Below, piece after piece: positions 1,101 through 53,009 of a stretch of DNA of 64,000 nt. The DNA is taken from assembly GCA_041658665.1 (NCBI GenBank), contig JBAZZR010000002.1, forward strand, positions 9,147-73,146, in the 5' to 3' direction. The notes under the pieces were generated by a model. That model was given only the letters and a program-made list of their open reading frames with translations, was not told where the DNA came from and ran no database searches. The translations under genes and the position numbers were made by a program. Within the stretch, counting starts at the first letter, position 1; every line of letters begins with the position of its first letter. Origin of the DNA: Patescibacteria group bacterium. Its GTDB lineage: Bacteria; Patescibacteriota; Patescibacteriia; Patescibacteriales; UBA12465.

Positions 1101-2966
1101 TTAATACAAAATTACATCGCCTTCTTTAAGACCGCTAATAATCTCCACTTTTTTACCGTCTGTGAAACCACTAATCACTGTCGTAAATTGGTGGTCAACC
1201 ATTTCCACCGCCGGATTACCGCCCACGTTACGAACCGCCTCCACTGGTACTGATAAAACATCTAGAGCCTGCGCGGTAATAAAATTAATTGAAGCAGTCA
1301 TGCCTTCTCTAATTTGCGAACCGCCGGTATTAGTTAACAGCACTCTAACCAAATAAGTAACAATACCATTAGCACTAGTCTCCGAAGTTAAAGAAATAAA
1401 ACTAACTTCTCCATTTAATTTCACGCCGTCAACAGCGTCAAAAGTAACATCGGCTTTATCGCCGACCTTAAGCTTACTAACATCTGCTTCCTCGATATTC
1501 GCTTCAATAAATAGCGTATCATTATTAATAATACTAACCACGGTTTTACTCGTACTACTATCTAAAATTATGTCACCTTTCTTATAATTTAACTGAGCAA
1601 TAACTCCATCAATTGGCGAAATTAAAGTCGCTTGGGCGACATTATATTTAGCGCGATCAACGGAAATCGCCGCTGAAGTTAGCTGGGCGCGCGCCGAAGC
1701 TAAATCGACCGCTCTGACCGGCGCCACCAGCGCCTTATAGTCATTCTCCGCCTGGCTTAAAGAAATCTCCCGCGACTTAAGAGTGATAGTCGCATTATTT
1801 ATATCCCGCTCGCTTTGTTTCTTAGTCGCCGCTAAGTCATTAAGCGCTTTATTATAAGAAATTTGTAAGCCATTTAAACTGGTCTCCGCGTTATTAACCG
1901 CCTGAGTAGCATTATTCAAACTAGATAAACTAGAGTTAACGCTAGAGCGATCACTATTAATAGTTGACTTAAAACTATCTAATTTAGTTTGAGAAAGATT
2001 GGCTGAAACAATTGTCGCGTCTAATAAATTCTGCATATCATACATTTGAGACTGTAGGAGACTTAAGGCTTGTTTAGTTTTAAGGGCTAAAGAATCAAGC
2101 GCCCCATTATCGCTACTATTTAAACTTAAAAGACTAGAATCTAAATCTAATTTTAAAGCCTTGGCTTGCAAATAACTAAATTTAGCCGTCGCTAAAGTAG
2201 CAGAATTTTTAACTCCTAAAACCGATTCGAACTCATCATTAACGGCTAAATCATCAATCCCTAAAATATTATCGGCGTCATGTAAAGCCCGCTGAAAAAG
2301 TACACTCACTGATTTGATAGAATCTAACAAACTAGAGTAAGCATCCTTTACAATCGCGCTGTCGCGAGCATTACTATTTAACTTCAAACTATTTTCCGCT
2401 GCTAAGAGAGCGCTGGCCGCGTTAGTTATTTGCTGACTGGCGCTTGATTTAACTTGTTCTAAACTAATCGTTGCTTGACTTAGAGAAACTTGCGCCTGAT
2501 CAATAGTGGTTTGCGCTTTACTTAACTCGCTATCCGTCGGTCCCGCCTGTTTAGAGCTTAGGCTAGCCAGAGCTGATTGATAACTAGCATAGGCATTACG
2601 CAATTCAAATTCTAGACTCTCGGTTTTGACAGCGGCGATTTTATCACCCTTTTTAACTTTATCCCCTTCTTTAACGTAAACATCTTTTACTTCTAAATTC
2701 CCGCTCACGGGGAAAGAAAGCTCGACTCCGTCTTTAGCCGTTACTTTTCCGTCGGACTGAACAGCAATTTTTATGTCTTCTTTTTTAACCGTCCATTTTT
2801 TTACTTGGACCACCGCGGCTTGACTAGTTTTAGAACTATTATAATAGTAATAAGCGCCGGCCAAGAGGAGTATAATAATAAAAACTAAAGCGGCTTTTTT
2901 ACTAAAAATAAATTGTCTAATGGCGCTGCGCTTTTTCCGACTTTCTTCTAGAATTGATTGAGCCAT
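1101..2966 (-). CDS. HlyD-family periplasmic adaptor (membrane fusion protein) with a very long coiled-coil
   Basis: N-terminal TM anchor, a lipoyl-like VKEGDKVKKGDKIA motif, a long Ser/Ala/Leu-rich coiled-coil and a C-terminal beta-barrel region. Lies upstream of the ABC ATPase and permease. Confidence 0.75.
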   Translation of the reverse strand: MAQSILEESRKKRSAIRQFIFSKKAALVFIIILLLAGAYYYYNSSKTSQAAVVQVKKWTVKKEDIKIAVQSDGKVTAKDGVELSFPVSGNLEVKDVYVKEGDKVKKGDKIAAVKTESLEFELRNAYASYQSALASLSSKQAGPTDSELSKAQTTIDQAQVSLSQATISLEQVKSSASQQITNAASALLAAENSLKLNSNARDSAIVKDAYSSLLDSIKSVSVLFQRALHDADNILGIDDLAVNDEFESVLGVKNSATLATAKFSYLQAKALKLDLDSSLLSLNSSDNGALDSLALKTKQALSLLQSQMYDMQNLLDATIVSANLSQTKLDSFKSTINSDRSSVNSSLSSLNNATQAVNNAETSLNGLQISYNKALNDLAATKKQSERDINNATITLKSREISLSQAENDYKALVAPVRAVDLASARAQLTSAAISVDRAKYNVAQATLISPIDGVIAQLNYKKGDIILDSSTSKTVVSIINNDTLFIEANIEEADVSKLKVGDKADVTFDAVDGVKLNGEVSFISLTSETSANGIVTYLVRVLLTNTGGSQIREGMTASINFITAQALDVLSVPVEAVRNVGGNPAVEMVDHQFTTVISGFTDGKKVEIISGLKEGDVILY

Positions 2967-2975
2967 ATATAATAA

Positions 2976-3629
2976 TTAGTTAATCAAGACGAATTCCGCC
3001 ACTTTCTTATCAGAAACACTACTACTCAGCCAAATAGTTATACTCTTATCCGCTGTGATATCATTTAAGGTCGCTTCCAACATTTCTCTATTTTGTTTAG
3101 TATCAACCGACGGCTTCAACATTTTAATACCAACCGGGATAATCACCTTCTCTTCGCCAGTACTGAGTTTCTTTAACTCTTCTAACATTTTAGTTCGATC
3201 AACGTCTTGGTCGTTAACACCGGGACTTCCCGGACCGCCAAAACCGCCTTGGCCGCCACGAGCGCCGCCAGCCATACGAGAGTTACCAGGACTTAAAGAA
3301 AAACGAGCCGAAGAAGAATTTGATTCACCGGATCTATTTTCGACCGTCGAGCTAGCTCGTCGGTTAATATTATCAATCTTTAAAATTGTAACTTCATTAC
3401 CAATTATCGATTTTACTATACCTCTAATATCGGCCGACCTTTGCGGCTGACCAAAATCAGGACGACGAGTCCCCGCTCCCGCCTGGCTAGGACTCTCCTG
3501 ACTAGAATTAGAAGAAATCTGGCCAGGGACTTGGCCACAAGCCGTTAAAAATAATAAAAGAGAAAAAACAGTCGTAAAAAATAGCGCTTTCCTCATAATT
3601 TTTGAGTTTAAAAAATTATTTAACAACAT
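2976..3629 (-). CDS. lipoprotein with a Gly/Ser-rich low-complexity centre, function unknown
   Basis: Signal peptide plus lipobox LFLTAC. The likely true start is MRKALFF (about 3596). Sits in the operon position ahead of the HlyD/ABC genes. Confidence 0.5.
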   Translation of the reverse strand: MLLNNFLNSKIMRKALFFTTVFSLLLFLTACGQVPGQISSNSSQESPSQAGAGTRRPDFGQPQRSADIRGIVKSIIGNEVTILKIDNINRRASSTVENRSGESNSSSARFSLSPGNSRMAGGARGGQGGFGGPGSPGVNDQDVDRTKMLEELKKLSTGEEKVIIPVGIKMLKPSVDTKQNREMLEATLNDITADKSITIWLSSSVSDKKVAEFVLIN

Positions 3630-3844
3630 CCTTTAGTAAAAATTCTAGTAAAAATACGCTGAAAGTCTTATATTAATACGCTAACATCAATAATTTTCTT
3701 CATAAATTAGCTAAAGAAATTAATGCTAAAACAGCCTACTAGCCGAGATATCAAGGCCGGTAGGCTGTATTTATTCTTTCGGGCTAATAAACGCCGGGAA
3801 AACGCTCCTTAAGCCGTAAATTTATTGGTTATCAATGCGTAAAT

Positions 3845-4360
3845 TTATTTGTTATTAATACCAGAATCTCTTAGTTCCATTCTTCCTAATCCCATTCCTT
3901 CAAAACCCATTCTCTCAATGCCTAAATCCTTCATAATTACAGCGGCTTGCTGTCTTAATTTATAAGCCTCGACTAATTTAGAAAAATTATCAGCCGTGAT
4001 TTTTGTAGTTAGAGCGCTGTTTGAGCCAACGGCCTTAAGCCAAGCTTGATAGTCGGAATTTTTTAGAGCGGCATCAATCGCCACTCGTTTAACCGACTGA
4101 TTCTGCTGTCTAAGAGCGGCCTCCGCTTTTAAAGAAGTCTTTTCGCTCTCCGTTAGCTTTTGTCCTTTCAGTTTATTCTGTCCCATTTTGAACCGCGTAT
4201 TTTTTATATTTTTAGAATCCTGATTTTTGGACAGTTCCGACTTAGCCGTTAAATTACTAAAACTGGTATCGGTCGCCGCTAAAGCCGATAAAGCGGTTCC
4301 GGATACTAGAGCTAAAACGGAGAAAGCGACTAAACTTTTCGCTAAATTATTTTTAATCAT
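3845..4360 (-). CDS. secreted helical protein, function unknown
   Basis: 171-aa ORF with an N-terminal signal-like segment (LVAFSVLALVSGTALSALA). A hairpin terminator lies downstream (about 3730-3770). Confidence 0.45.
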   Translation of the reverse strand: MIKNNLAKSLVAFSVLALVSGTALSALAATDTSFSNLTAKSELSKNQDSKNIKNTRFKMGQNKLKGQKLTESEKTSLKAEAALRQQNQSVKRVAIDAALKNSDYQAWLKAVGSNSALTTKITADNFSKLVEAYKLRQQAAVIMKDLGIERMGFEGMGLGRMELRDSGINNK

Positions 4361-5930: not shown

Positions 5931-6012
5931 GCGCTTAGAATGGCCACCCTTGAATCATAGGCGGGTGCTGATTATATTACGTTATTATTCCCTCTTTTCT
6001 TCTCTAAAAAAT

Positions 6013-7293
6013 CTAAACGACTTGAGAATCATGTTTAATTGCTTCAATTAGTGCCTGCGAATCAGCAAATTTCTTCACTTCCCTAATTTTATGAGAAATT
6101 TTAACTATCACCGTTTCGCCATAAATATCGCCCGAAAAATCTTTAATCAAGACCTCGAGCGAAACCGGCTTATCAAAAACTTCTCTAAAACCGAAATGCA
6201 TAACTCCCGCATAACTCTTATCTTTAATAATGATATTAACGGCATAAACACCGTGCGGGATATCTAAATCCGTCTTATCGAGGTTAGCCGTGGGAAAACC
6301 TAACTTTTTCCCCCGACCAACGCCGCGAATAACTCGAGCCTTAAAAACAATCTGCCAAGCTTTACTCGCCAGCGAAGATTGGTAAAAAGCTAATAATAAA
6401 ACGAAGGCGGCGAAAGCTTGGGGCCAAGTAAGATAATTCTTATTAAACACATAGTCTAAAACCAACGAGGAAAGCGGCCAAAATAGTTCTAAAACTGTCG
6501 CTAGAGAAGCGGGGACTTTCTGTAAACCAAAATAATAAATAAACATCGCGCCCGCGCCGCTAGTTAAAACAATTAAGATTAGTAGTTCCCATTGGCTAGT
6601 CGATAACCCGCTAATCGCTCCGACTCGACCGCTGAACAATAAAATGGCCGACATTAAAAGTGAAGTAACGCCGAAACGTAAAGCGGCAACCGCCTTATAA
6701 TCTAAATGATTAGCGATTCGTTTTCCAAAAACAGTCGAAGAACCAAAGGAAAAAGCCGCAATAAAAGCGAATAGAGCGGCACTATGCCGCCAGTCTAGCG
6801 CCGCTAAATTTAAACCCGTTTTACCAAACGCTAAAAAGTAGGCCGCTAAAATAGCTAAACCCGCCCAAAGATAAAATTTCTTAGTTAATTTTTCTCCTAA
6901 AATGAGTCGCGACAATAAAATAGCAAAAATCGGCTGAAGCTTTTGTAAGATAACGATTAGGGCAAAACTTATGCCGCCGGCGGCAGCGATAAAAAAAGCC
7001 TTGGTGATCATAATCGTCCCAATAACGCCGCCAAAAATACTAATCCAGACTATCGCCAACCAGCTCGACCAGCTCAAGAATTTAATCTGACCGCGATAAA
7101 TATACACAAACGGACAAAGAATCAGAAAACCTAAAATATGCTCTAAAAAAACTATCAATTCCACCGGCGACTGATAAAATTTCGGACGAATAAAAAGACC
7201 ATCAATACTCCAAAGTAAGGCCGCCAGCATTATCGCTAGCGAGCCAACGAGAGTCCGCCGATCAATTAAAATATTCTTAAGAATTCTTTTCAT
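6013..7293 (-). CDS. EamA/DMT-family transporter fused to a C-terminal riboflavin kinase domain
   Basis: About 310 aa of 10-TM EamA-like sequence, then VIRGVGRGKKLGFPTANL...EVLIKDFSGDIYGETVIVKISHKIREVKKFADSQALIEAIKHD, the flavokinase (RibF C-terminal) signature. Confidence 0.8.
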   Translation of the reverse strand: MKRILKNILIDRRTLVGSLAIMLAALLWSIDGLFIRPKFYQSPVELIVFLEHILGFLILCPFVYIYRGQIKFLSWSSWLAIVWISIFGGVIGTIMITKAFFIAAAGGISFALIVILQKLQPIFAILLSRLILGEKLTKKFYLWAGLAILAAYFLAFGKTGLNLAALDWRHSAALFAFIAAFSFGSSTVFGKRIANHLDYKAVAALRFGVTSLLMSAILLFSGRVGAISGLSTSQWELLILIVLTSGAGAMFIYYFGLQKVPASLATVLELFWPLSSLVLDYVFNKNYLTWPQAFAAFVLLLAFYQSSLASKAWQIVFKARVIRGVGRGKKLGFPTANLDKTDLDIPHGVYAVNIIIKDKSYAGVMHFGFREVFDKPVSLEVLIKDFSGDIYGETVIVKISHKIREVKKFADSQALIEAIKHDSQVV

Positions 7294-7312
7294 ATCACCA
7301 AGGTATCTTCAT

Positions 7313-7555
7313 TTAATCCTTAGCTAGATCGGCTTTTTTTTCTTCAAATTCCTTTTTCTCAATTTCGCCCTTAGCGTAACGTTCTTTCAAAAGACTGAGA
7401 GCATTATTGCTTCGATGTTTATGGTGGCCTCTACCAGAATCGGCTAACCAACGAATGAAAACTATAAGAGCGTAAATTAGGAGAGCCCACCAAATGATCA
7501 TGAGAATTGGCCCAAAAAAACCAAACCCATAAGGATAATAACCAAAATTCATCAT
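7313..7555 (-). CDS. SHOCT-domain small membrane protein
   Basis: One TM helix followed by LSLLKERYAKGEIEKKEFEEKKADL (SHOCT-like C-terminus). Confidence 0.65.
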   Translation of the reverse strand: MMNFGYYPYGFGFFGPILMIIWWALLIYALIVFIRWLADSGRGHHKHRSNNALSLLKERYAKGEIEKKEFEEKKADLAKD

Positions 7556-7635
7556 ATTATTAAAATTATTTATATTAGATAACTATTATAGCATATTGCC
7601 TGGTTTATCTCGACTAAAAATTCTAATTATCATGA

Positions 7636-10600
7636 TTACGGTTGGAACTCAAAAGTCGGCCCGACAAAATGCATTTGATCTAAAACCGTGTCAGTTTTCG
7701 GCATGATGCCAGCAATTATCGCGCTCTGACCAGAAAAATCTTCAACAATATCGCCCACTTTACTAAATTCTTTTTCTTTAATCATCATCTGAGCATCGCT
7801 AAAACCAATATAAACGGGAAAATATTGCCGATTACTAAGCACTATTATATCAAAATTAGAAATATTATTTTTTAATTTTTCTGGTAAACTATTTTTATCA
7901 CCTTGATAAAAAATGTCGACCCCTGCCTCTTCGACGATTACTTTTAAATTAGCAACCCTCGTCATTTTAGCCAGCGTAGCCTTATTAACCAGGTGATAAT
8001 TATCAACTAAAGTTCCGGTCGGCTCCAATATCCCGACAATTTTAACAGTAGCTAGCCCAAAAAAATCCGTTAAACTATCACCCGGACCCTTAATTAAATT
8101 CTCTTTTTTCATCATCATCGCCTCGTCATAACCAATAATCATTTCATTATCGCCTAGGACTGAAACTCCCTCTTGAATTTTAACCAAATCGGGTAAACTG
8201 TCGACACCTAAAAATAATTTAGGATTATCGTCACCAAAGTTAATTTTGGTTTCATTCCCAGCCACAAAAGTATTAAGAGCTGAAGCGGTTTTGACCGAAA
8301 CGATAGCGGTCGAGCCGCCAGTCTCCATGCCCGAACTCAGCCGCGCAAATTCTAAGAAAGCTAGAGTAAAAACTATCACCATAACAACGGGAGCAATTAA
8401 TGATAAATAATTCCGCTTATTAGGTTTGAAATAACGAAGTAAAAGCGAATTGCCGACTACTGAGATAGAGCTCATCGCCATCGCTAAACCGGCTAACTCT
8501 GGTTTTAAAACCAAACCAAATTTAATGAAAAGACGAGCGGCAATCGGAATGCCAATCACATTATAAAATAAAGCAAAAAACATATTCTGCTTGATCTTAC
8601 TCATAGTCTCGCGGGAAAGCTGAAAAGCGCTCACAACATCATTTAAATCATTCTTCATAATTACAATCCCCCCCGTTTCCATCGCCACATCCGTGCCCGA
8701 ACCCATCGCGATACCGAGGTCGGCCTGTGCTAAAGCGGGCGCATCGTTAATCCCGTCGCCAACCATCGCGACCTTATTACCTCCCGCCTGTAATTTTCTG
8801 ACCTCACTGGCTTTATCTTCTGGCAAAACTTCCGCTAAAACATTGGTAATTCCGACTTGGCTAGCGATGGCTTTCGCCGTACGCTCGTTATCGCCGGTAA
8901 TCATATAAACCGTAAGACCTAGTTTTTTTAAGCGAGTGATCGCTTCCGACGAACTCGCTTTAACGGTATCAGCGACCGCGATCACGCCTAAGATTTTTTC
9001 TTTAGTAGCTAAAATCATCGCCGTTTTACCCGCCTCTTCTAGCTTAATCAATTTACGATTTAGCTTATCAATTGAGTGACCGAGGATATCGGTGACCAAA
9101 CGACGATTACCAAAATAATATTCGACCTTATCAATTAGACCCTTAACCCCGTGGCCCGCGATGGCTGAAAAATCGGTAACTTCATCCAGACTAATCGACT
9201 CCTGATTGGCGTGAGTATAAATCGCTTCCGCCAGAGGATGTTCAGAGAGTTTTTCAAGACTAGCAGCGATGGCTAAAATTTCCTCCTCCTCTAGATTTTC
9301 GAAAGCTATGATATCAGTTACTTCCGGCCGGCCGTAAGTTAAAGTACCCGTCTTATCAAAAACAATAGTCTTAATATGACAAGCCGCTTCTAACGGTTCC
9401 CCGCCTTTAATAAGTATTCCGTATTCCGCGCCCTTGCCTGTTCCGACCATTAGCGAAGTCGGCGTGGCTAAGCCGAGTGCGCAAGGACAAGCAATAACGA
9501 TAACTGAGGTAAAAGCCATGAGAGCGAAAGACAATGAAGCTCCTAAGAAAAAATACCAAACTAGAAAAGTAATAATCGCCAGACCAATAACCGTCGGCAC
9601 AAAAACGGCCGAAATTCGATCAGCGAAACCTTGAATCGGCGCTTTAGAACCCTGGGCTTCTTCCACTAAACGAATAATCTGGGCGAGCACGGTTTCACTG
9701 CCCACGCTAGTTACTTTAAATTCAAAGCTACCCGTTTTATTAATTGTGGCTCCGACTACTTTATCGCCTACTTTTTTCTCGACCGGCAGACTTTCCCCGC
9801 TAATCATCGATTCGTCTACGGCCGAGGAACCTTTAACTATTTGACCATCGACAGGAATTTTTTCACCAGGACGGACTAAAACAATATCGCCATGAATGAC
9901 TTCATCAATCGCAATATCTAGAGTCGAGCCATTACGAATTACCCGGGCCGTCTTAGCTTGCAGCCCCATTAATTTTTTAATCGCGTCGCCCGTCTTTCCT
10001 TTAGTACGAATTTCTAACCATTTGCCTAGAATAACAAAGGTGATTAAAAAGGCCGCTGTTTCAAAATATAATTCCGGGATCTTACCATTTAAACCAAGAA
10101 CCGACTGAGTCTTAATAAAATAGTTAATAAAATTAATTAAGCTATAAAGATAAGCCGTCGAAGTACCGATGGCAATCAGGCTATCCATGTTAAAAGTCTT
10201 CATCTTCAAGGCTGACCACATCCCCTTATAAAATCCCGCCCCAATAATAAACTGAACAGGCGTTGTTAAAATCAGCGAAACTATTCCGACCCAAGGTAAA
10301 ACCGCGGCTTGGCCGGGAATAGCGAAAAAATCCAGCAACATAAAGTAAAGCATCGGTAAACTAAGAGTAAAACTAAACCAAAATTTCTTAAAATAAAATT
10401 TAATCTCCTGCTCTCTCTTCCGGCGGTCATAATCATTATCTTTAGTATCGACGAGCTCGGCTTTATAACCAGCTTTTGCAATAGCTTCTAAAAAAGCTGG
10501 TAATTTCACTTGCGTTTCGTCGTAGACAATATTCGCTTTTTCCGCCGCAAAATTAACATTCGCCTGAGATACCCCCGGCACTTTCTTTAAAGATCGTTCA

Positions 10601-11298
10601 ATAATATTAGCGCAAGATGAACAATGCATCCCGAAAAGCGACAAACTAATTCTCTGGTTAGTGTTTTGTCCAGTTAGCGATTCCTTTTCCTTAACACCGC
10701 TAACGACCAAAGAAGGTGCCACTGATTTATTCGATTTATCATTAATACTACCACCAGACAATAATTCAAATAGACGAGCGATACTGACCGTCTTACCGAG
10801 CTGTCCAACTAAACGCTCAATCTCGGGACGATTTTCAGGAATGACAAACTCCGCTGAATGATTATTATTAATCACCCCTTCAAAATAAGTTTTTCCCTGA
10901 TCATTTTCCATAACTCGTCCTTCCGCCGCCGTTTTAGTTTCTAATTTTACACGCAGCGGTTCCGTATTCTTGGAATAACGGCTAGAAATATTAACCTCTT
11001 TTTTTTCTGGCGCTGTTTCCTCGGCCTGTCTATCTTTATTTTCTTCATCAAGAGAATTCGTCTTCATATCTACTGCCATCTCCGACTGGACCTTAGCCTG
11101 ATAACCGGCCTTATTAATAGCCCTTACGACCGCCGCTAAATTATTTTTCTCTTCATCAAGAATTAATTCGGCCGCCGCTTTTGACGAACTAACCGTAATA
11201 TCGCTTAATCCCGGTAAATCCGCCAGTTCCGCTTTAATTAAAGTCTCACAAGAAGAACAATGCATTCCTTCTATCTTCAATAGTATTTTCTTAATCAT
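7636..11298 (-). CDS. copA: copper-translocating P1B-type ATPase with two N-terminal HMA domains and a ~270-aa C-terminal extension
   Basis: GMHCSSC present twice, CPC motif ([12 protein letters not shown]), [15 protein letters not shown]. An extra TM helix and a duplicated module follow the normal end of the core ([10 protein letters not shown]). Confidence 0.9.
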
Positions 11299-11302
11299 AT
11301 AG

Positions 11303-11509
11303 TTATTTAATAATTGAATAAGGGGTGCCCACCAAACTTTTAGCTAAAACATCTAAGTCGAGATTATCCGCGCCAGAAATCCTAGTTTCACCGCTAGCTA
11401 AATCAATATTGACTTCAGCTACCTCCGGCACTTTTTTTAAATAATTACTAGCTAGTTTAACACAAGCCGAACAAGTTAAACCTGCTAATTGAAAAGTTAT
11501 TATCTTCAT
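11303..11509 (-). CDS. copZ: heavy-metal-associated (HMA) copper chaperone
   Basis: 68 aa with GLTCSAC metal-binding motif, adjacent to copA. Confidence 0.8.
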
Positions 11510-11528
11510 AATTTTAATAAATAATTAA

Positions 11529-13376
11529 TTATTCGACGATAACCGAACCGTAATTAATCATCCCCATACTACAAGTAATGTCGTAAGAACCGGGCGTAGT
11601 CGGGGTAAATTCCATCGTAATCGGCGTTCCCGCTCGTAATGGCACAACTTCATCATACAGTTGAGGAATGGTAATCGCGTAGCCGCAACCGCTACCGCTA
11701 TCGCGCACATCAATTTCGAGTCTAACTTTCGTCCCCGCCTTAACTTTAAAAATGGCTGGATCAAGATATTTAGCATCCGTATAAGTTGTCTTGATAATCT
11801 GAACCGCCTCTTGGCCAGAAACAGCTTGAGTCGTTGCTACGGCCACTGGACTAGAATCTATATTAGTTGGCCTTTTACCGCCGCCGCCACAACCACAGCC
11901 GCCGCCGCCCGTGCCACAAGTTCCGCCGCTATTACCACTAGCTATGGCCGCCGGAATAGCCGTAATATCAGCATTACTATTATTAACACTAGCGGGAATA
12001 TCACCACTAAAAACATCAAATACCCCGGTATACATTCCCATAGAACAAGAGAAAGGTAATTGACCAGATTCCGTTGGCGTAAATTCAATAATATTTTCCC
12101 CGGCCTTTAAAAACTTCTGAATCTTTAATTTAGGAATAAGGAGAACACTAGCACAAGAATAAGGCGCTTTCGCTTCAATAATCCATTTAACTGGCACGCC
12201 CTGCTTAATAGAAAACTGATTAGGCGAATAACCGCTATTAGTTTCCGTCATGCGGACAACCTGGACGCCGTTCTCTAGAGTCACATTAGGATCCTTATTA
12301 ATTCCTGAGGACTGTTTAACTCCGGCACTACCTAAAAAACCGGCGCTTAAACTCGCTAAAGTATAACCATTATTAAGGTTAAATAAAGCAAAAAATATTA
12401 CCGCTAAACCAGCAACTTTAAAAAACCGTTCTTTAAAAGAACCTTTAATTAAAGAAGTCAGACCGCCGATACTTAAAAGTCCTGGCGCCGTACCAAGAGC
12501 AAAGAGACCCATAACTAAAGCACCAGATCCAAAATTACCGGTACTAATTGCGTAAAGCTGCATCGCTTGAGTAAAGCCGCAGGGCAAGAAAAATGTTAGC
12601 GCCCCCATTAACATCGCCTTCTCATGACTATAAACCTCATGCTTGCGACTAGCTCCTAAGGCTCTACTAATCCCTTTTGGCAAAGATAATTTAAACTTAT
12701 TCAAACGCGGAAAAATATTAATGAGCTGTAAACCCATAACGAGCATTACTACCCCGACTAGCAGGGTCAGCAAACCATTAGCCAAAGGCGACAGCTGAAA
12801 AACCGTGCCGAGAACGCCGAGTAAACCGCCTAGAAAAGCATAAGATAAAATGCGGCCGATAGTGAAAAAAATATGCGGCCGAAATTTTTCCGCTGGCGTC
12901 GCCGTCGGATGATGTTCTACGAACTTAGTTGATAAGCCTAGAACTAACCCGCCGACTAAAGCCATACAAGTTGAAAAACCAGCCACGAGTCCGATAACAA
13001 TAATCAAACCAAAACTCGGATTACTAATATTAGGCGTGAGATTAATATTAGTCAGACCTAGACCTCTAAGAACAAGGTACAGGGCCATGAGCATTAAAAA
13101 AGCTACTCCGAGACTAGCGTATTCGCGCTTATCACGAGTAAGAAAAGGAAGCTCGTCCGTGGTGCCGACTTCGTAGCCGGCTTCAGCAATCGCTTGCTTA
13201 ATGAGATTCATATCTGGCGCACTATTCTTATAATGAATAGTCGCCTCGCCCGTTTTATAGTTTAAAGCTGCTGACTGAACCGACGCGAGCGCTTGAAGTT
13301 TTTCTTCGATCAAAATTTCACAAGAGCGGCAGTGCATACCCCGAATGGGTACTTTTAAATATTTATTATGAGACAT
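11529..13376 (-). CDS. HMA domain - polytopic DsbD_2/TauE-like membrane domain - two cupredoxin-like domains
   Basis: N-terminal GMHCRSC. Membrane Cys motifs GFSTCMAL and FFLPCGF. Two C-terminal beta domains each end in CSMGM, joined by a GGTCGTGGGGCGCGGGG linker. Confidence 0.7.
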   Translation of the reverse strand: MSHNKYLKVPIRGMHCRSCEILIEEKLQALASVQSAALNYKTGEATIHYKNSAPDMNLIKQAIAEAGYEVGTTDELPFLTRDKREYASLGVAFLMLMALYLVLRGLGLTNINLTPNISNPSFGLIIVIGLVAGFSTCMALVGGLVLGLSTKFVEHHPTATPAEKFRPHIFFTIGRILSYAFLGGLLGVLGTVFQLSPLANGLLTLLVGVVMLVMGLQLINIFPRLNKFKLSLPKGISRALGASRKHEVYSHEKAMLMGALTFFLPCGFTQAMQLYAISTGNFGSGALVMGLFALGTAPGLLSIGGLTSLIKGSFKERFFKVAGLAVIFFALFNLNNGYTLASLSAGFLGSAGVKQSSGINKDPNVTLENGVQVVRMTETNSGYSPNQFSIKQGVPVKWIIEAKAPYSCASVLLIPKLKIQKFLKAGENIIEFTPTESGQLPFSCSMGMYTGVFDVFSGDIPASVNNSNADITAIPAAIASGNSGGTCGTGGGGCGCGGGGKRPTNIDSSPVAVATTQAVSGQEAVQIIKTTYTDAKYLDPAIFKVKAGTKVRLEIDVRDSGSGCGYAITIPQLYDEVVPLRAGTPITMEFTPTTPGSYDITCSMGMINYGSVIVE

Positions 13377-49054: not shown

Positions 49055-49126
49055 GGTCCCTTCGTCTAACGGTTAGGACGCCAGGTTCTCATCCTGGTAA
49101 CAGGGGTTCGATTCCCCTAGGGACTA
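49055..49126 (+). tRNA. tRNA-Glu (anticodon CTC)
   Basis: Acceptor GGTCCCT/AGGGACT, anticodon arm CCAGG-TTCTCAT-CCTGG, T-arm AGGGG-TTCGATT-CCCCT. Confidence 0.9.
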
Positions 49127-49170
49127 CTATTGGGGAACTAGCGTGTGCCAGTTCTCTTTTCGTTTGTAGA

Positions 49171-49245
49171 ATTAGGGAAATTTTAGGTGTTCGATTTCCT
49201 GTAAAATCAAAAAAAGGTTTTTCGAGAAAAATAAAGCTCCTGTAT
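49171..49245. repeat. degenerate/truncated copy (U0) of the cassette junction element, abutting tRNA-Glu
   Basis: Shares gtaaaatcaaaaaaagg and agctcc with U3 (tataaatcaaaaaaagctcc), plus a weak match to the right half of the core (gaaat, aaaattt). Confidence 0.4.
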
Positions 49246-49264
49246 CTATTGGTAAAATTGATAT

Positions 49265-49849
49265 TTAATTATTAATTTCAACATCTACCAAGCTATACGG
49301 AATCCCCTGTTCTTTAACTAAAGACTTAATTTTCTTTTGTTCCTGGCTATACATTTCTTGGAAAGTGGCAAAACCTCCTTGCACCAATCTTTTGTTGCGA
49401 TGAAGGGCCCAAACCGGGTGCACTCGCTCCTTGTGGGTCGAGCGCTCTTCTATCGCCTCTTCAGTAACGATCGGGACAAAGACGAAAGTCGGCAGATTTT
49501 TTAATTTATTAATGATTTTCTCGTACTGAGCTATCATGTCAGGACTGGATGAGACAGTAAAAATGGCGTAGGAGATATGGAATCGATTAAGTATAAAAAC
49601 CGCGTTGCTGTCATCGCGAAGAATTTTTTCACAATAATTTAAAAAGTGCTCATAAAAATTAAGCCTGATCGCATCGATATCTTCGATCCAAGCGTGTTTC
49701 CAGGTAAACAAAAGTTCTTCTTCATAATAATCATATATTGTCTTACCGGACAGCATTCCTTCAATTTGCTTTTGGAGAGTATTTTTTCCTGCACCGGCGA
49801 TTCCTTCAATTATAAATAATCTAGCGGCTGGCAATGATGTAATTTTCAT
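49265..49849 (-). CDS. P-loop NTPase, (deoxy)nucleoside/nucleotide-kinase-like
   Basis: Walker A FIIEGIAGAGKNTL near the N-terminus; size and layout resemble the dNK/dTMP-kinase fold. Confidence 0.55.
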   Translation of the reverse strand: MKITSLPAARLFIIEGIAGAGKNTLQKQIEGMLSGKTIYDYYEEELLFTWKHAWIEDIDAIRLNFYEHFLNYCEKILRDDSNAVFILNRFHISYAIFTVSSSPDMIAQYEKIINKLKNLPTFVFVPIVTEEAIEERSTHKERVHPVWALHRNKRLVQGGFATFQEMYSQEQKKIKSLVKEQGIPYSLVDVEINN

Positions 49850-49859
49850 ATCGAATAAA

Positions 49860-50975
49860 TTATTTACTCAAATTCTTATAAATTATTTCACCGTCATCCT
49901 TAATTTCAAAAATTCCCACCTCTCCCTCCGGTAGGTAATATAAATTAATTGTTCTTTTTTCGCCCGGGATGGTTTCATATTTGTCATGATCAATTGTTTG
50001 TCCTCCGAACAGACGCAACTTAGCTTTTCCCGATTCATCGAAATCTAAAAAGTTTATTCCCGCCGCCAAAGTTTCACGCGAAACATGCATGTGCCCACAA
50101 GCAACGTAAATATCTGCCTTTGCTGGTAGCCGGCGACATAGCTCCATAAGATATTTACTTACAGGCAAAAACTGTTTGTAGGGGACTCTTTCTGAATCTG
50201 GCAAATTAGCTTGTTTAACTTGTTTTTCATAAACTCCAGGTTTTTTTGGGCCTTTAAACGGAGTCTCGTGAGCAAAAATCAATATACTCTTTTTATCTTT
50301 ATTCAATTGAGCAAAATCATCAATGGTTTTTTCTAAACTATTAGTTTGTTCGGCATTCTTTTCGTCAACTTTAAATGAAGGCCAAAAAATAACGGAGGTC
50401 TTATCATCTAAAGGCAAATTCAAAGGCTTATCATAAGAATCCACTCCGGCTTCTTTTAACAATTCTTGTGTCGCTTCTAGTTTCTGAGGGAAGGGTCTAT
50501 CAGCATTTCCCATAATATGGCGAACATCACTTTTCAATTCTGAAAGTCGGCTGGTTACATCTTTAATAGATTGTCTCATGTCTGCCATTGCTTGATCTAA
50601 TTCGCCTCTACTTTTTGCCATCCATAAAGCATAAACGGCAATATCTTGTTCCATTCCTATATTTTTTTGTTGCTCCTTAAAAATATGATATTCTGGAGAT
50701 TCTATAATTTTAATATATTCCTCAACCTCCAATGATAGTTTATCCGTCTTTTTTTCTTTGTCATAACGTAAAGCCAGGCCCTTTGCTTCTTTAACATACT
50801 CAGAAAGTATTCCGCTACCCGCTAAATCCCCAATATGAACTATAAAGTCTAAATTCTCTCCGTGATTTTTTAAAGGCTCTAGGGCTTCATCGAGTTGTTG
50901 CCCTTTTCTTCCTTGGGTATCAGAAATAATGCCGAAACGGTAATTTTGATTCCCCATTTTATCAGGATTCATCAT
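49860..50975 (-). CDS. atypical calcineurin-type metallophosphoesterase with a ~100-aa helical insertion
   Basis: Motifs ISDTQG, HIGDLAGSG, GNADRP, FAHETP and ACGHMHV. Confidence 0.7.
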   Translation of the reverse strand: MMNPDKMGNQNYRFGIISDTQGRKGQQLDEALEPLKNHGENLDFIVHIGDLAGSGILSEYVKEAKGLALRYDKEKKTDKLSLEVEEYIKIIESPEYHIFKEQQKNIGMEQDIAVYALWMAKSRGELDQAMADMRQSIKDVTSRLSELKSDVRHIMGNADRPFPQKLEATQELLKEAGVDSYDKPLNLPLDDKTSVIFWPSFKVDEKNAEQTNSLEKTIDDFAQLNKDKKSILIFAHETPFKGPKKPGVYEKQVKQANLPDSERVPYKQFLPVSKYLMELCRRLPAKADIYVACGHMHVSRETLAAGINFLDFDESGKAKLRLFGGQTIDHDKYETIPGEKRTINLYYLPEGEVGIFEIKDDGEIIYKNLSK

Positions 50976-51063
50976 ACATTTATTTACATTATTTATCCCT
51001 TATTTTACATTTATAATAGCAAAAATTGACCTTTTTTGCAATATTTTTGATTTTTTACATAAT

Positions 51064-51199
51064 TCAATAAGTCTTAATAATTTCCGCCCATCTCCCAATC
51101 TCCTTAACCATCCCCTCAAAATTTTGAGAAATTTCAGACTTTAAGACTACCAATAAAAAAGCGGCAGTAATTTTACTCCGCTTTTTGTGTTAATTTTCC
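51064..51199. repeat. cassette junction element U1 (70-nt core 51081-51150 plus hairpin 51161-51181 plus T-run)
   Basis: Core is 56/70 identical to U2 and 57/70 to U3 (hand count). The hairpin gcggcagtaattttactccgc is flanked by A6 and T5. Shares the tgttaatttt tail with U3. Confidence 0.85.
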
Positions 51200-51924
51200 C
51201 TCAACCAAGTGTTTATGCCTATAATCGCGGCAAAACATAACTCTTGGTCAGAATGAAAATCGATGTTATGTAAATCAAATCGTTCTGATTTATCCGCATC
51301 ACGATTTTTAGTCCATGATAGCCAACGTCCGCTCATGTTCACTTGGATAAAGAATGATTCTCTGCTAATAGTAATTTGGTCGTAAGACAATTCTTCTTTG
51401 AAAAAATAATTATATACCCTCTTTAATTCAGAGATTACATAACTATTTAATGTTACCAAATCTTCATCGCTTAGAGAATAAAGTCTTTTTTTAAACCAAG
51501 GGTATAATTGCCCACCAATAGAATAACCACCCATTTGATAGCCCCCATCAAAAATAACGAAAGAGAGTGCCTGGTCATCCCAAACTGCTTCAGAAAAGAA
51601 TTCTTTTTCATAGAACATTTGTTCAACCACGTAATAGGTGGCTAAATAAACTGTTAGCAACATTTTCCGCATGGCTATATCATTATCTTTTTCTGGAAAG
51701 TTAAACTTATATATTATATAATCGTTTTCCTCTCCTTGTATTTTAAAACAACCGCCAAAACCGAACATTGCCCCGCCGATATGAAATTCCCCTAGATAAG
51801 AATACTTCTCCATCAAGGGGCTGTCGATCTTAAATAGCGCAACTGGCGCCGACTTATTTTGAAAAAAATTCTTATGAATTTTTAAAAAATAAGTATTTTC
51901 CTTGAGTATTAAATCTAGTATCAT
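51190..51924 (-). CDS. orphan protein, function unknown
   Basis: 244-aa ORF with an AAGGA ribosome-binding site upstream. I recognise no motif. Confidence 0.5.
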   Translation of the reverse strand: MILDLILKENTYFLKIHKNFFQNKSAPVALFKIDSPLMEKYSYLGEFHIGGAMFGFGGCFKIQGEENDYIIYKFNFPEKDNDIAMRKMLLTVYLATYYVVEQMFYEKEFFSEAVWDDQALSFVIFDGGYQMGGYSIGGQLYPWFKKRLYSLSDEDLVTLNSYVISELKRVYNYFFKEELSYDQITISRESFFIQVNMSGRWLSWTKNRDADKSERFDLHNIDFHSDQELCFAAIIGINTWLREN

Positions 51925-51989
51925 GATTTTTCCTTTTTAATGTGCAATATTTTATTTATTATTAACATTAGTATTAAATAGTTGATAAG

Positions 51990-52107
51990 TCAATTCTTTA
52001 AAACTTCCGCCCATTTCTCAATCTCCCCAATAATCCCGTCAAAATTTTGGCAAATGTTAGATCTTAAGACTACGAAATCAAACAACTCGTCTGAAGGCGA
52101 GTTTTTT
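51990..52107. repeat. cassette junction element U2 (70-nt core 52004-52073 plus hairpin 52084-52103 plus T6)
   Basis: Core is 56/70 identical to U1 and 54/70 to U3. Hairpin aactcg-tctgaagg-cgagtt is followed by tttttt. Confidence 0.85.
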
Positions 52108-52121
52108 GATATACTTTCAAT

Positions 52122-52859
52122 ATGAATAATTTTGGAAACTTTAGCAAACTAGAAAAAAATTATAAATTTATTAGACCTAGTTATCCGACCAGGGTAATTA
52201 GAGATATTTATTATCTCATCAAAACTCCGCATCCAATTATTTTGGATTTGGGATGCGGCACTGGAATTTCTACTCGACAAATGGCAAAAAAGAACTCAAG
52301 AATATTTGGCTGCGATATTGATGAAAAGATGTTTGCTAACGCTTCCAAGGATAAAAATATTACATATATTAAAGGTAGCGCGGAGAAACTCCCCTTTCCG
52401 GACAAAACCTTCGACCTTATAACTATGTTTGCCGCTTTCCACTGGTTTTCGAACAAAAAAGCAATAAATGAGATGCGTAGAGTTTTAAAACCAAAAGGAG
52501 CTATATATATAGTACAACAAAAACATACATCACCTTTCAGTCATGACCATAAAGAAATAATCAGTAAAGTGTTAGGAGCCACTATAAAAACAAAATATAG
52601 CAAAAGAAAATTTGAAGATGTTCTGGCACAAAATAATTTCGAAATCATTGAAAACAAAATCTATAAAACTATTAATAAATATACCTTAGGACAATTTCTT
52701 AAACTGTTGCAATCTTATAGTATTTGGAATGAAGTCCCAGTCTCAAAACGCAAACAAATTATAAAATTGTTCAAAAGTCACTTTAGAACAATGCTGAAAA
52801 ACGGCTTAATTCACGATGCAGCTGACCTTTATTTAATTTGTGCTAAACCAAACCTTTAA
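52122..52859 (+). CDS. class I SAM-dependent methyltransferase
   Basis: ILDLGCGTG motif I, FDLITMFAAFHWF, and LKPKGAIYIV post-II region. Confidence 0.85.
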   Translation: MNNFGNFSKLEKNYKFIRPSYPTRVIRDIYYLIKTPHPIILDLGCGTGISTRQMAKKNSRIFGCDIDEKMFANASKDKNITYIKGSAEKLPFPDKTFDLITMFAAFHWFSNKKAINEMRRVLKPKGAIYIVQQKHTSPFSHDHKEIISKVLGATIKTKYSKRKFEDVLAQNNFEIIENKIYKTINKYTLGQFLKLLQSYSIWNEVPVSKRKQIIKLFKSHFRTMLKNGLIHDAADLYLICAKPNL

Positions 52860-52882
52860 TACGAACCATAATTTAAAAAGTA

Positions 52883-53009
52883 CTATTTACAAATTTCCAT
52901 CCATTTCTCGATTTCCCCAACAATCTCATTAAAATTTTGAGAAATTTCAGACTTTAAGACTATAAATCAAAAAAAGCTCCATTTTTTGACGCCTTTTTTT
53001 GTTAATTTT
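52883..53009. repeat. cassette junction element U3 (70-nt core 52894-52963 plus weak A/T hairpin plus T-run)
   Basis: Core is 57/70 identical to U1 and 54/70 to U2. Its tail ...cctttttttgttaatttt matches the U1 tail. Confidence 0.85.

Follow-up and report, generated by a model that had tools for sequence, protein, structure and literature searches.

Integrases with an attachment site (attP) inside their own gene are known from Mx8 and from the archaeal SSV-type elements. Mx8 likewise integrates at a tRNA 3' end, by means of a tyrosine recombinase (Int), and exchanges a C-terminal segment much longer than in the system considered here. According to the summary given in PMC6070905, which cites Tojo 1996 and Magrini 1999, the Mx8 attP lies within the integrase coding sequence, and integration leaves an active enzyme, encoded by a recombinant int gene whose 3' end is new. 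In the SSV-type systems, attP is placed in the int open reading frame (ORF), integration into a tRNA gene splits int to both flanks of the element, and the att site is translated (PMC7253208). In the model for these elements tandem integration would restore an intact int, an event reported as not observed, and their 'suicidal' tyrosine integrases were called 'so far restricted to archaea' (PMC7253208). This work deals with a 64,000-nucleotide (nt) stretch of a Patescibacteria genome (the window), in which a tRNA-Glu(CTC) gene is followed by three integrase-less units, each with a conserved sequence block at its end (U1, U2 and U3). With a probability of about 85%, these blocks are the attR-side last 26-28 codons, with the stop codon, of a large serine integrase gene, orphaned by integration at tRNA-Glu.

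As in Mx8, attP would lie inside the ORF and int acquires a new 3' end on integration; here, however, the enzyme is a large serine recombinase in which about 26 residues are swapped for 12 tRNA-antisense residues, and solo orphan ends are found in arrays. The differences from the SSV-type are a bacterial host (Patescibacteria), another catalytic family and a protein of which about 95% stays intact, and the tandem array with a reconstituted int is in this case present, at the related locus L085. The integrase family thus works like Mx8 IntP/IntX and the SSV-type enzymes but belongs to neither, since its catalytic domain has the serine recombinase (Resolvase) fold and not that of a tyrosine recombinase. 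Its Resolvase, Recombinase and Zn ribbon architecture is the same as that of phiC31, Bxb1, SPbeta SprA and TP901-1. To our knowledge, the large serine integrases described so far have attP outside the int ORF and target mostly protein-coding genes or intergenic sites; in comparison with those of phages and of integrative and conjugative elements, a family with tRNA 3' ends as targets and attP inside its own 3' end is atypical. In the general model, the att sites of large serine integrases are short, and attP and attB share few central bases (PMC3783163). The locus also resembles tandem tRNA islands and integron arrays, in that co-oriented repeats separate small accessory units beside a fixed chromosomal site; nevertheless, the repeat is an integrase coding fragment, neither a partial tRNA copy nor a structure-defined attC, and the integron components IntI, attI and Pc were not found. 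The literature search, which was incomplete and in which surveys of large serine integrases may hold unremarked cases, gave no paper on this arrangement, nor any on tRNA-targeting serine integrases in Patescibacteria or on integrons there with a bearing on the element.

The blocks were delimited on the minus strand by repeat comparison and translation, together with alignment (U1) or tblastn (U2, U3) against P0062, an unsplit homologue of the integrase: U1 at 51064-51150 reads VVLKSEISQNFEGMVKEIGRWAEIIKTY, U2 at 51990-52073 reads VVLRSNICQNFDGIIGEIEKWAEVLKN and U3 at 52883-52963 reads IVLKSEISQNFNEIVGEIEKWMEICK, each followed by a stop codon. They are direct copies on one strand, 76-80% identical to one another (51074-51160, 51997-52083 and 52887-52973), and a 26-base-specified pattern with 3 mismatches allowed matches nothing else in the window, no match being expected by chance. 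By means of pattern scans, relatives were collected at 24 loci from GTDB species genomes and 58 from JGI metagenomes (numbered with the prefix L), over which a profile search gave about 110 copies, at least 94 of them non-redundant, in Patescibacteria metagenome-assembled genomes and metagenomes. The conserved block comprises about 75 nt (about 85 bases in the window) with sharp edges on both sides, and all the relatives keep the minus-strand frame VVLKSEISQNFNEIIGEIEKWAEIL plus 0-5 residues before a stop codon. In 75 of 84 copies the block has a hairpin and T-run as its right-hand neighbour; the three in the window run, on the plus strand, into an A-run, then a hairpin of unrelated sequence and finally a T-run. 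About 26 loci have 2-3 copies, always co-oriented and 0.5-3 kb apart, with intervening genes in either orientation. The named source records of the block loci are all Patescibacteria. Eleven contigs (L002, L003, L005, L006, L010, L015, L017, L019, L021, L022 and L024) are titled 'uncultured Gammaproteobacteria bacterium' (Third Party Annotation), titles which, on contigs with a Patescibacteria-type element and synteny, are probably taxonomic errors.

The blocks diverge as a coding sequence does. Across 82 unique copies, the codons TTA, CTA, CTT, CTG and TTG all serve for Leu3, and the Leu at position 25 likewise has five codons. Lysine (AAG/AAA) alternates with arginine (CGC/AGG/AGA/CGT) at position 4, K and R are again the two residues at position 20, and Trp21 is invariant apart from 3 stops. 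The mean BLOSUM62 score of the non-synonymous codon pairs is +0.19 in the minus-strand frame and -1.1 to -1.5 in the other five frames, and only 1 of 1000 column shuffles attained +0.19 in any frame. The peptide measures 25-29 aa in 71 of 84 copies, with premature stops in just 6 of the 84. Any of ATG, GTG or TTG occurs in frame in 24 of 92 copies, and an in-frame stop precedes VVLK by 0-1 codon in 27 of 92. In the first 24 copies the codon-position entropy was 0.39/0.47/0.54, which is non-coding-like; these copies were too much alike, and wider sampling gave a different result. The original prediction, made from the letters of the window, had described three repeated junction elements with minus-strand translations and stops, all of which could be reproduced at confirmed coordinates. 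It had taken them for diverged gene ends rather than a neutrally decaying duplication, as is borne out by the codon-like substitution pattern in the 82 copies and by the integrase that was found, and it had noted that a start codon is lacking, in agreement with an in-frame ATG in only 7 of 92 copies. As to the conservative and synonymous differences on which it relied, the conservative part holds (BLOSUM62 +0.19) and the synonymous part is weakly enriched.

The gene to which these ends belong is found at related loci, where a 507-533-aa large serine recombinase reads into the 3' end of tRNA-Glu and terminates in ...KRELAQASSPIVV-PRGIEPLLPG and a stop codon. Minus-strand ORFs of 524-540 codons enter tRNA-Glu in the GTA GTC frame in L016/L050, L048, L049 and L008. 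The att core, GTA GTC (Val-Val) at the junction, lies within the int coding sequence and is translated. In L016, positions 83-1684 encode a 533-aa protein ending ...SLILQTKRELAQASSPIVVPRGIEPLLPG before the stop, with the domains PF00239 Resolvase (E=1.5e-36), PF07508 Recombinase and PF13408 Zn_ribbon_recom. The end of this ORF, ...FDFTGNRTPKISLILQTKRELAQASSPIVV-PRGIEPLLPG, has antisense tRNA as its last 12 residues, and KRELAQASSP is encoded by the 'terminator' after the L016 tRNA. A co-oriented block (7706-7779) lies 7.6 kb away in L016, and when it is joined to position 122, the base after the tRNA, a single ORF ending ...ASSPIVVLKSEICQNFDEIIGEIEKWAEILKS and a stop results; its tail reads ...ASSPIVV-LKSEICQNFDEIIGEIEKWAEILKS in place of the PRGIEPLLPG tail (...SSPIVV-LKSEICQNF...WAEILKS, then a stop). 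In fact, all five full-integrase loci (L016, L008, L048, L049 and L084) have a co-oriented block 4.4-9.2 kb away.

When the reconstructed integrase was used as a query, 296 homologues were retrieved at E<=1e-30. Among the 115 that are full-length, 99 have tRNA-antisense tails (GIEP, RIEL and similar) and 12 more were left by the strict pattern, most of them with tRNA-antisense-like tails that it missed, while four (P0062, P0077, P0090 and P0114) are unsplit, being longer and having a native ...[ED]I[KR][KR]W... helix at the end. Residues 456-496 of P0062 match the window at 49247-49125, and its residues 496-520 match U2 and U3 (tblastn, residues 496-520 against U2, E=0.007; residues 496-516 against U3, E=0.005). 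Moreover, when the integrase remnant of the window is joined to U1, the product can be aligned gap-free with residues 464-520 of P0062 (56% identity, E=3e-19), and mini-ORFs predicted by gene callers, such as P0013 (...FDFTKNQTPNLSLILQNKRELASASSPVVVLKSEICQNF...), are integrase C-terminal region continuous with a block. The locus of P0062 itself, L085, has a tandem array of related elements at tRNA-Arg(TCT) (565-726, 6001-7578 and 11204-12758), in which the integrase at the tRNA is fused to it and the following one, unsplit, continues into the adjacent block. These two enzymes share about 85% identity, and of a third junction a remnant survives. The homologous integrases P0038-P0157 have differing tRNA-antisense tails, for instance PRGIEPLLPG, PTGIEPVLPH, PRRIELLLPH, RGIEPRFSG and GIEPATNGLKGRCSTD, which suggests that sub-lineages target different tRNA genes and that the attB of each integrase could be readable from its own C-terminus.

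In the window, the tRNA-Glu(CTC) gene (49055-49127, plus strand; assigned by ARAGORN, Rfam, sequence and synteny) ends ...CCCCTAGGGACTAC and stands downstream of def-fmt, as it does at the syntenic loci L054, L039, L018, L002 and L047, and the region downstream of def-fmt-tRNA-Glu differs among the syntenic genomes. It is the putative chromosomal attachment site, in particular the B half of attB/attL. Across its 3' end runs, on the minus strand, the 3'-end remnant of a large serine integrase gene (49092-49247; ...LEKPFFDFTGNRTPKISLILQTKRELAHASSPIVV-PRGIEPLLPG and a stop), recognised by tblastn, translation and DNA identity. What survives of the integrase amounts to its final ~52 codons, the last 12 of which (49092-49127) are antisense tRNA-Glu; 49128-49247 are the last ~40 element-derived codons, on the element-side (P') arm, and contain the hairpin which doubles as tRNA terminator. 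The remnant is 85% identical to residues 456-507 of the L016 integrase (tblastn, E=5e-22), and its region has 90.8% DNA identity to L016 33-237.

Two kinds of sequence are found at the left of the proposed junction. The core GACTAC occurs both at the 3' end of tRNA-Glu and where the block ends on the right; in U1, which comprises the P half of attP and the core, it lies at 51145-51150, and in U3 it is degenerate (GACTAT). A segment of L052 matches 51145-52073 (the first hairpin, a 244-aa gene and U2) at 91.7% identity; there, however, the left neighbour of the shared hairpin is no block but a tRNA-Glu(UUC) gene, which lies on the same strand and has ...CCCCTAGGGACTAC as its end. The end of U1 is ...TTTAAGACTAC, and the homology with L052 begins at GACTAC. 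Conversely, the flank of the window's tRNA-Glu(CTC) follows a block in L038 and L076, and its hairpin part only in L012/L059. Clustering of the sequences to the right of GACTAC gave at least seven flank families occurring after both tRNA-Glu genes and blocks, in different genomes or loci rather than in one population; the flanks of U1 and of the window's tRNA-Glu are among them. Beyond the junction on that side, copies show no conservation. Since these flank families are common to both, tRNA-Glu genes and blocks would be interchangeable left partners of a site-specific junction. The A-run, hairpin (stem 51161-51181) and T-run at 51154-51186, placed by folding, the L052 alignment and flank clustering, would be a bidirectional terminator belonging to the right-hand unit and not to U1.

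What can be seen directly is how the sequences are related, which domains are present, that split and unsplit forms exist and that junctions are shared, and from this we infer recombination itself and its chemistry, the crossover dinucleotide, the order of insertion and the reuse of an occupied tRNA. A free circular element would have attP inside the 3' end of its integrase ORF, with ...CAGACTTTAAGACTAC on one side of the junction and TATTGGGGAACTGG... on the other, and would recombine with the tRNA-Glu 3' end at GACTAC (GTAGTC on the coding strand). The gene would thereby be cut in two: the integrase body would stay at the tRNA and gain a 12-residue antisense-tRNA tail (PRGIEPLLPG), and the native tail (LKSEISQNF..EIEKW.EIL.) would be moved to the far end of the element, attR, with neither promoter nor start codon. 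The left edge of the block would then be the integrase stop codon and its right edge the crossover point, and the hairpin and T-run beyond would be the downstream flank of the tRNA before insertion, i.e. the tRNA terminator. With repeated insertion at one tRNA, each older unit would be displaced further out, and the blocks would come to form co-oriented arrays; in the window, where every unit lacks an integrase, U1-U3 would be solo attR stumps separating cargo genes. Such a scheme accounts for the features of the block: its divergence is protein-like because different element lineages carry diverged integrases, its stops are aligned because they are the integrase stop codon, it has neither start codon nor Shine-Dalgarno site because it is a gene end cut off by integration, copies are co-oriented because of successive insertions at one tRNA, and the right edge is sharp, being the crossover point, next to a hairpin which varies because it is a former tRNA-downstream flank. 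One of the explanations offered at the outset, capture of cassettes by recombination inside the 3' end of a common target gene with delivery of replacement gene ends, came close as regards recombination inside a gene 3' end; the gene, however, is the element's own integrase, and the chromosomal target is the 3' end of tRNA-Glu instead.

Several points weigh against this interpretation. The synonymous excess is weak, with 129/130/188 changes by codon position and a synonymous fraction of 0.25-0.32, and the unusual codons GGG, GTC and GCG are strongly conserved in the blocks, which hints at an extra constraint at the DNA level or at recent spread. No circular form and no pair of empty and occupied sites from one population was seen, and two pattern scans of viral contigs gave 0 matches. 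Units 2 and 3 of the window carry no integrase remnant, so that their origin as decayed elements is deduced indirectly, and they may instead have been mobilised in trans. Furthermore, canonical large serine integrases recombine only attP with attB, and reinsertion at an occupied tRNA needs explaining; that such reinsertion does occur is seen in the L085 array. Finally, searches with short peptides alone missed the unsplit integrases. The X-padded consensus against 5.8 billion proteins and the profile against 1.84 billion representatives matched only proteins of up to 105 aa, with the block always at the C-terminus and N-termini mostly unrelated to one another, and a query with the chimeric C-terminus gave no long protein either. 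The full-length gene escaped these searches since integration splits it, and since 26 aa are too short a query for unsplit forms as divergent as these; the absence of any full-length homologue ending in the peptide, which was to count against a gene-end origin and which these searches seemed to indicate, gave way when the unsplit integrases were found.

The exchange of tails might also have a functional side. Replacement of the native amphipathic helix (...EIEKW.EIL) by a tRNA-encoded tail could affect the activity of the integrase, switching it between integration-competent and excision-competent or silent states, while orphan blocks may remain substrates, cargo units without an integrase being moved in trans and tRNA-Glu acting in Patescibacteria as an integron-like capture site for accessory genes. 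This proposal is a doubtful one; if true, the tail swap would be a gene-structural control of directionality which replaces or supplements a recombination directionality factor. A reading that partly overlaps with the integrase-end interpretation, and that is rather unlikely, takes the blocks for still-active recombination sites of an integron-like cassette system, with integrase-less units mobilised in trans and captured at tRNA-Glu. The same units do occur in both kinds of position: the 244-aa unit follows tRNA-Glu in L052 and U1 in the window, a 267/339-aa unit follows tRNA-Glu in L039 and a block in L052, and a 277/359/147-aa unit follows a second conserved element, B, in L024 and a block in L056. 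The cargo of related arrays is of an accessory type (Fic, PLD, Polbeta nucleotidyltransferase, DNA and S-adenosylmethionine (SAM) methyltransferases, HNH), and most blocks keep frame and core, premature stops being as rare as stated above. Yet most arrays have no adjacent recombinase, and the sequence right of the junction is unconserved, so that the units lack a two-armed attP; the block beside a common unit differs by about 19% while the cargo is 92-97% identical, and no circular cassette was observed. Among the recurrent neighbours of the blocks there is no tyrosine integrase. An assignment to integron attC was rejected, as the blocks have no conserved fold and what is conserved is sequence and coding frame; IS200/IS605, group II intron, transfer-messenger-RNA-like, translational bypass and rut-site candidates were dropped for lack of the defining feature.

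The explanations that give the block a product of its own fare worse. One of them, proposed in similar form at the outset, is a family of C/U-rich small RNAs (sRNAs) of ~75 nt on the plus strand, each with its own intrinsic terminator, and the plus-strand hairpin and T-run after 75 of 84 copies, a -10-like ATAATT box upstream of U1 and U3 and the co-orientation of blocks and tRNA-Glu would fit such a family. It is nevertheless very improbable. In the window and 16 loci, Rfam at the gathering threshold and at E<=10 returned tRNAs only, so that even at E up to 10 no match covers the block. On folding of both strands, the three copies have nothing in common beyond the terminator, z-scores are weak once that terminator is excluded, and the variable dinucleotide in the sole candidate stem is never compensated. 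Upstream sequences are unrelated among copies, and in L008, L009 and L018 another terminator stands 10-15 nt upstream, leaving no room for a promoter; the terminator to the right travels with the neighbour on that side and not with the block, and the codon-like substitutions are on the opposite strand. A protein-binding insulator, suggested as well, found no support. A free-standing 26-32-aa amphipathic-helix protein made on the minus strand from a non-canonical start is likewise very improbable, in spite of the open frame, the conserved stop position, the conservative replacements and the few copies annotated by gene callers as 28-105-aa proteins. No start codon with a ribosome-binding site is conserved across copies, the in-frame ATG is as scarce and the stop just before VVLK as frequent as given above, a terminator lies immediately upstream, and the N-terminal extensions of the called proteins are mutually unrelated or are integrase remnants. 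Above all, the peptide is collinear with the C-terminus of the unsplit integrases. The phase in which U1 and U3 stand with the 244-aa and YbaK-like ORFs, pointed out in the original prediction, does exist but is most likely coincidence, with stops intervening and neighbours in either orientation.

As the severed end of an integrase, a conserved coding frame without a start codon becomes a readable record of past integrations. The strategy of an attP inside the ORF, known from Mx8 and from the SSV-type tyrosine integrases, would operate also in bacteria with another catalytic family, and this family is large, comprising hundreds of Patescibacteria large serine recombinases, most of them with tRNA-antisense tails. 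Translation of the att core means that the sequence of each member directly gives its attP, attB, attL and attR, which may help the mining of serine integrases with defined sites. Moreover, the annotation of mobile DNA in genomes of the Candidate Phyla Radiation can be aided, as stumps and chimeric tails are now miscalled as hypothetical mini-proteins, and the regions downstream of tRNA-Glu are flagged as hotspots of varying gene content in the reduced genomes of Patescibacteria.

The remaining features of the window are the cargo genes and terminators between the blocks. Unit 1 (49128-51150) carries, on the minus strand at 49265-50975, a 194-aa ORF without a Pfam match and a 371-aa calcineurin-like metallophosphatase (ORF list, Pfam). 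The cargo of unit 2 is the 244-aa ORF (51190-51924, minus strand), which has no Pfam match and of which locus comparison gave a 91% identical copy directly after tRNA-Glu(UUC) in L052. After U2, a hairpin and T-run (52084-52109; terminator scan and fold) stand just upstream of the start codon of the unit 3 gene, a 245-aa class I SAM-dependent methyltransferase on the plus strand (52122-52859; Pfam Methyltransf_11, E=7e-26). A weak A-run, hairpin and T-run (52967-53008, from the fold) separate U3 from the 3' end of the neighbouring YbaK-like gene (167 aa, minus strand). GC skew is negative throughout the window (1-64000; -0.01 to -0.19), whose tRNA genes are on the minus strand at 15.6-21.8 kb and on the plus strand at 49-56 kb; when block orientation was compared with GC skew, 39 cases were negative and 19 positive, a replication-linked orientation being left undecided by these counts.

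With regard to the elements as a whole, a gene for a rolling-circle initiator-like protein (REP_ORF2-G2P) is placed beside the integrase in L016 (2018-2788), L084 (16509-17282) and L085 (4649-5440 and 10025-10810), and by this gene content the elements look like integrative rolling-circle plasmids or single-stranded-DNA-phage-like replicons. In L085, moreover, two N_methyl pilin-like genes have a bAvd-like gene and a reverse transcriptase (RVT_1) as neighbours (2111-4026), an arrangement which resembles a diversity-generating retroelement.

Outside the window, element B is 130-190 nt long, GC-rich and located after a tRNA-Glu gene or after a block and its terminator. It was recorded at L024:2791-2968, L020:1546-1722, L006:95-271, L054:1510-1685, L055:631-806, L063:864-1042, L030:4947-5124 and L078:6234-6422 and, on the minus strand, at L048:1980-2168 and L061:889-1066. 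At the 5' end it carries the tRNA-Glu T-arm in inverted form (CTAGGGGAATCGAAC), and at the 3' end the final 17 nt of tRNA-Glu are repeated directly (ATTCCCCTAGGGACTAC) ahead of a terminator. Antisense tRNA genes had been considered to the right of some blocks; ARAGORN found none there, and the sequence concerned is this inverted T-arm copy of element B. RNAalifold gave compensatory changes in 15 of 21 predicted pairs, with folding z-scores of -5 to -6, and Rfam had no match to the element, which could be a structured RNA of no known family or a palindromic pseudo-attB landing pad. A unit of four genes (216, 322, 159 and 195 aa), enclosed by two blocks in L054 (3130-5799), recurs in L045, L080, L044, L015 and L042. 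It includes a Polbeta-type nucleotidyltransferase adjoining the 159-aa protein, which has no Pfam match, and the two could form an MNT/HEPN-like toxin-antitoxin pair.

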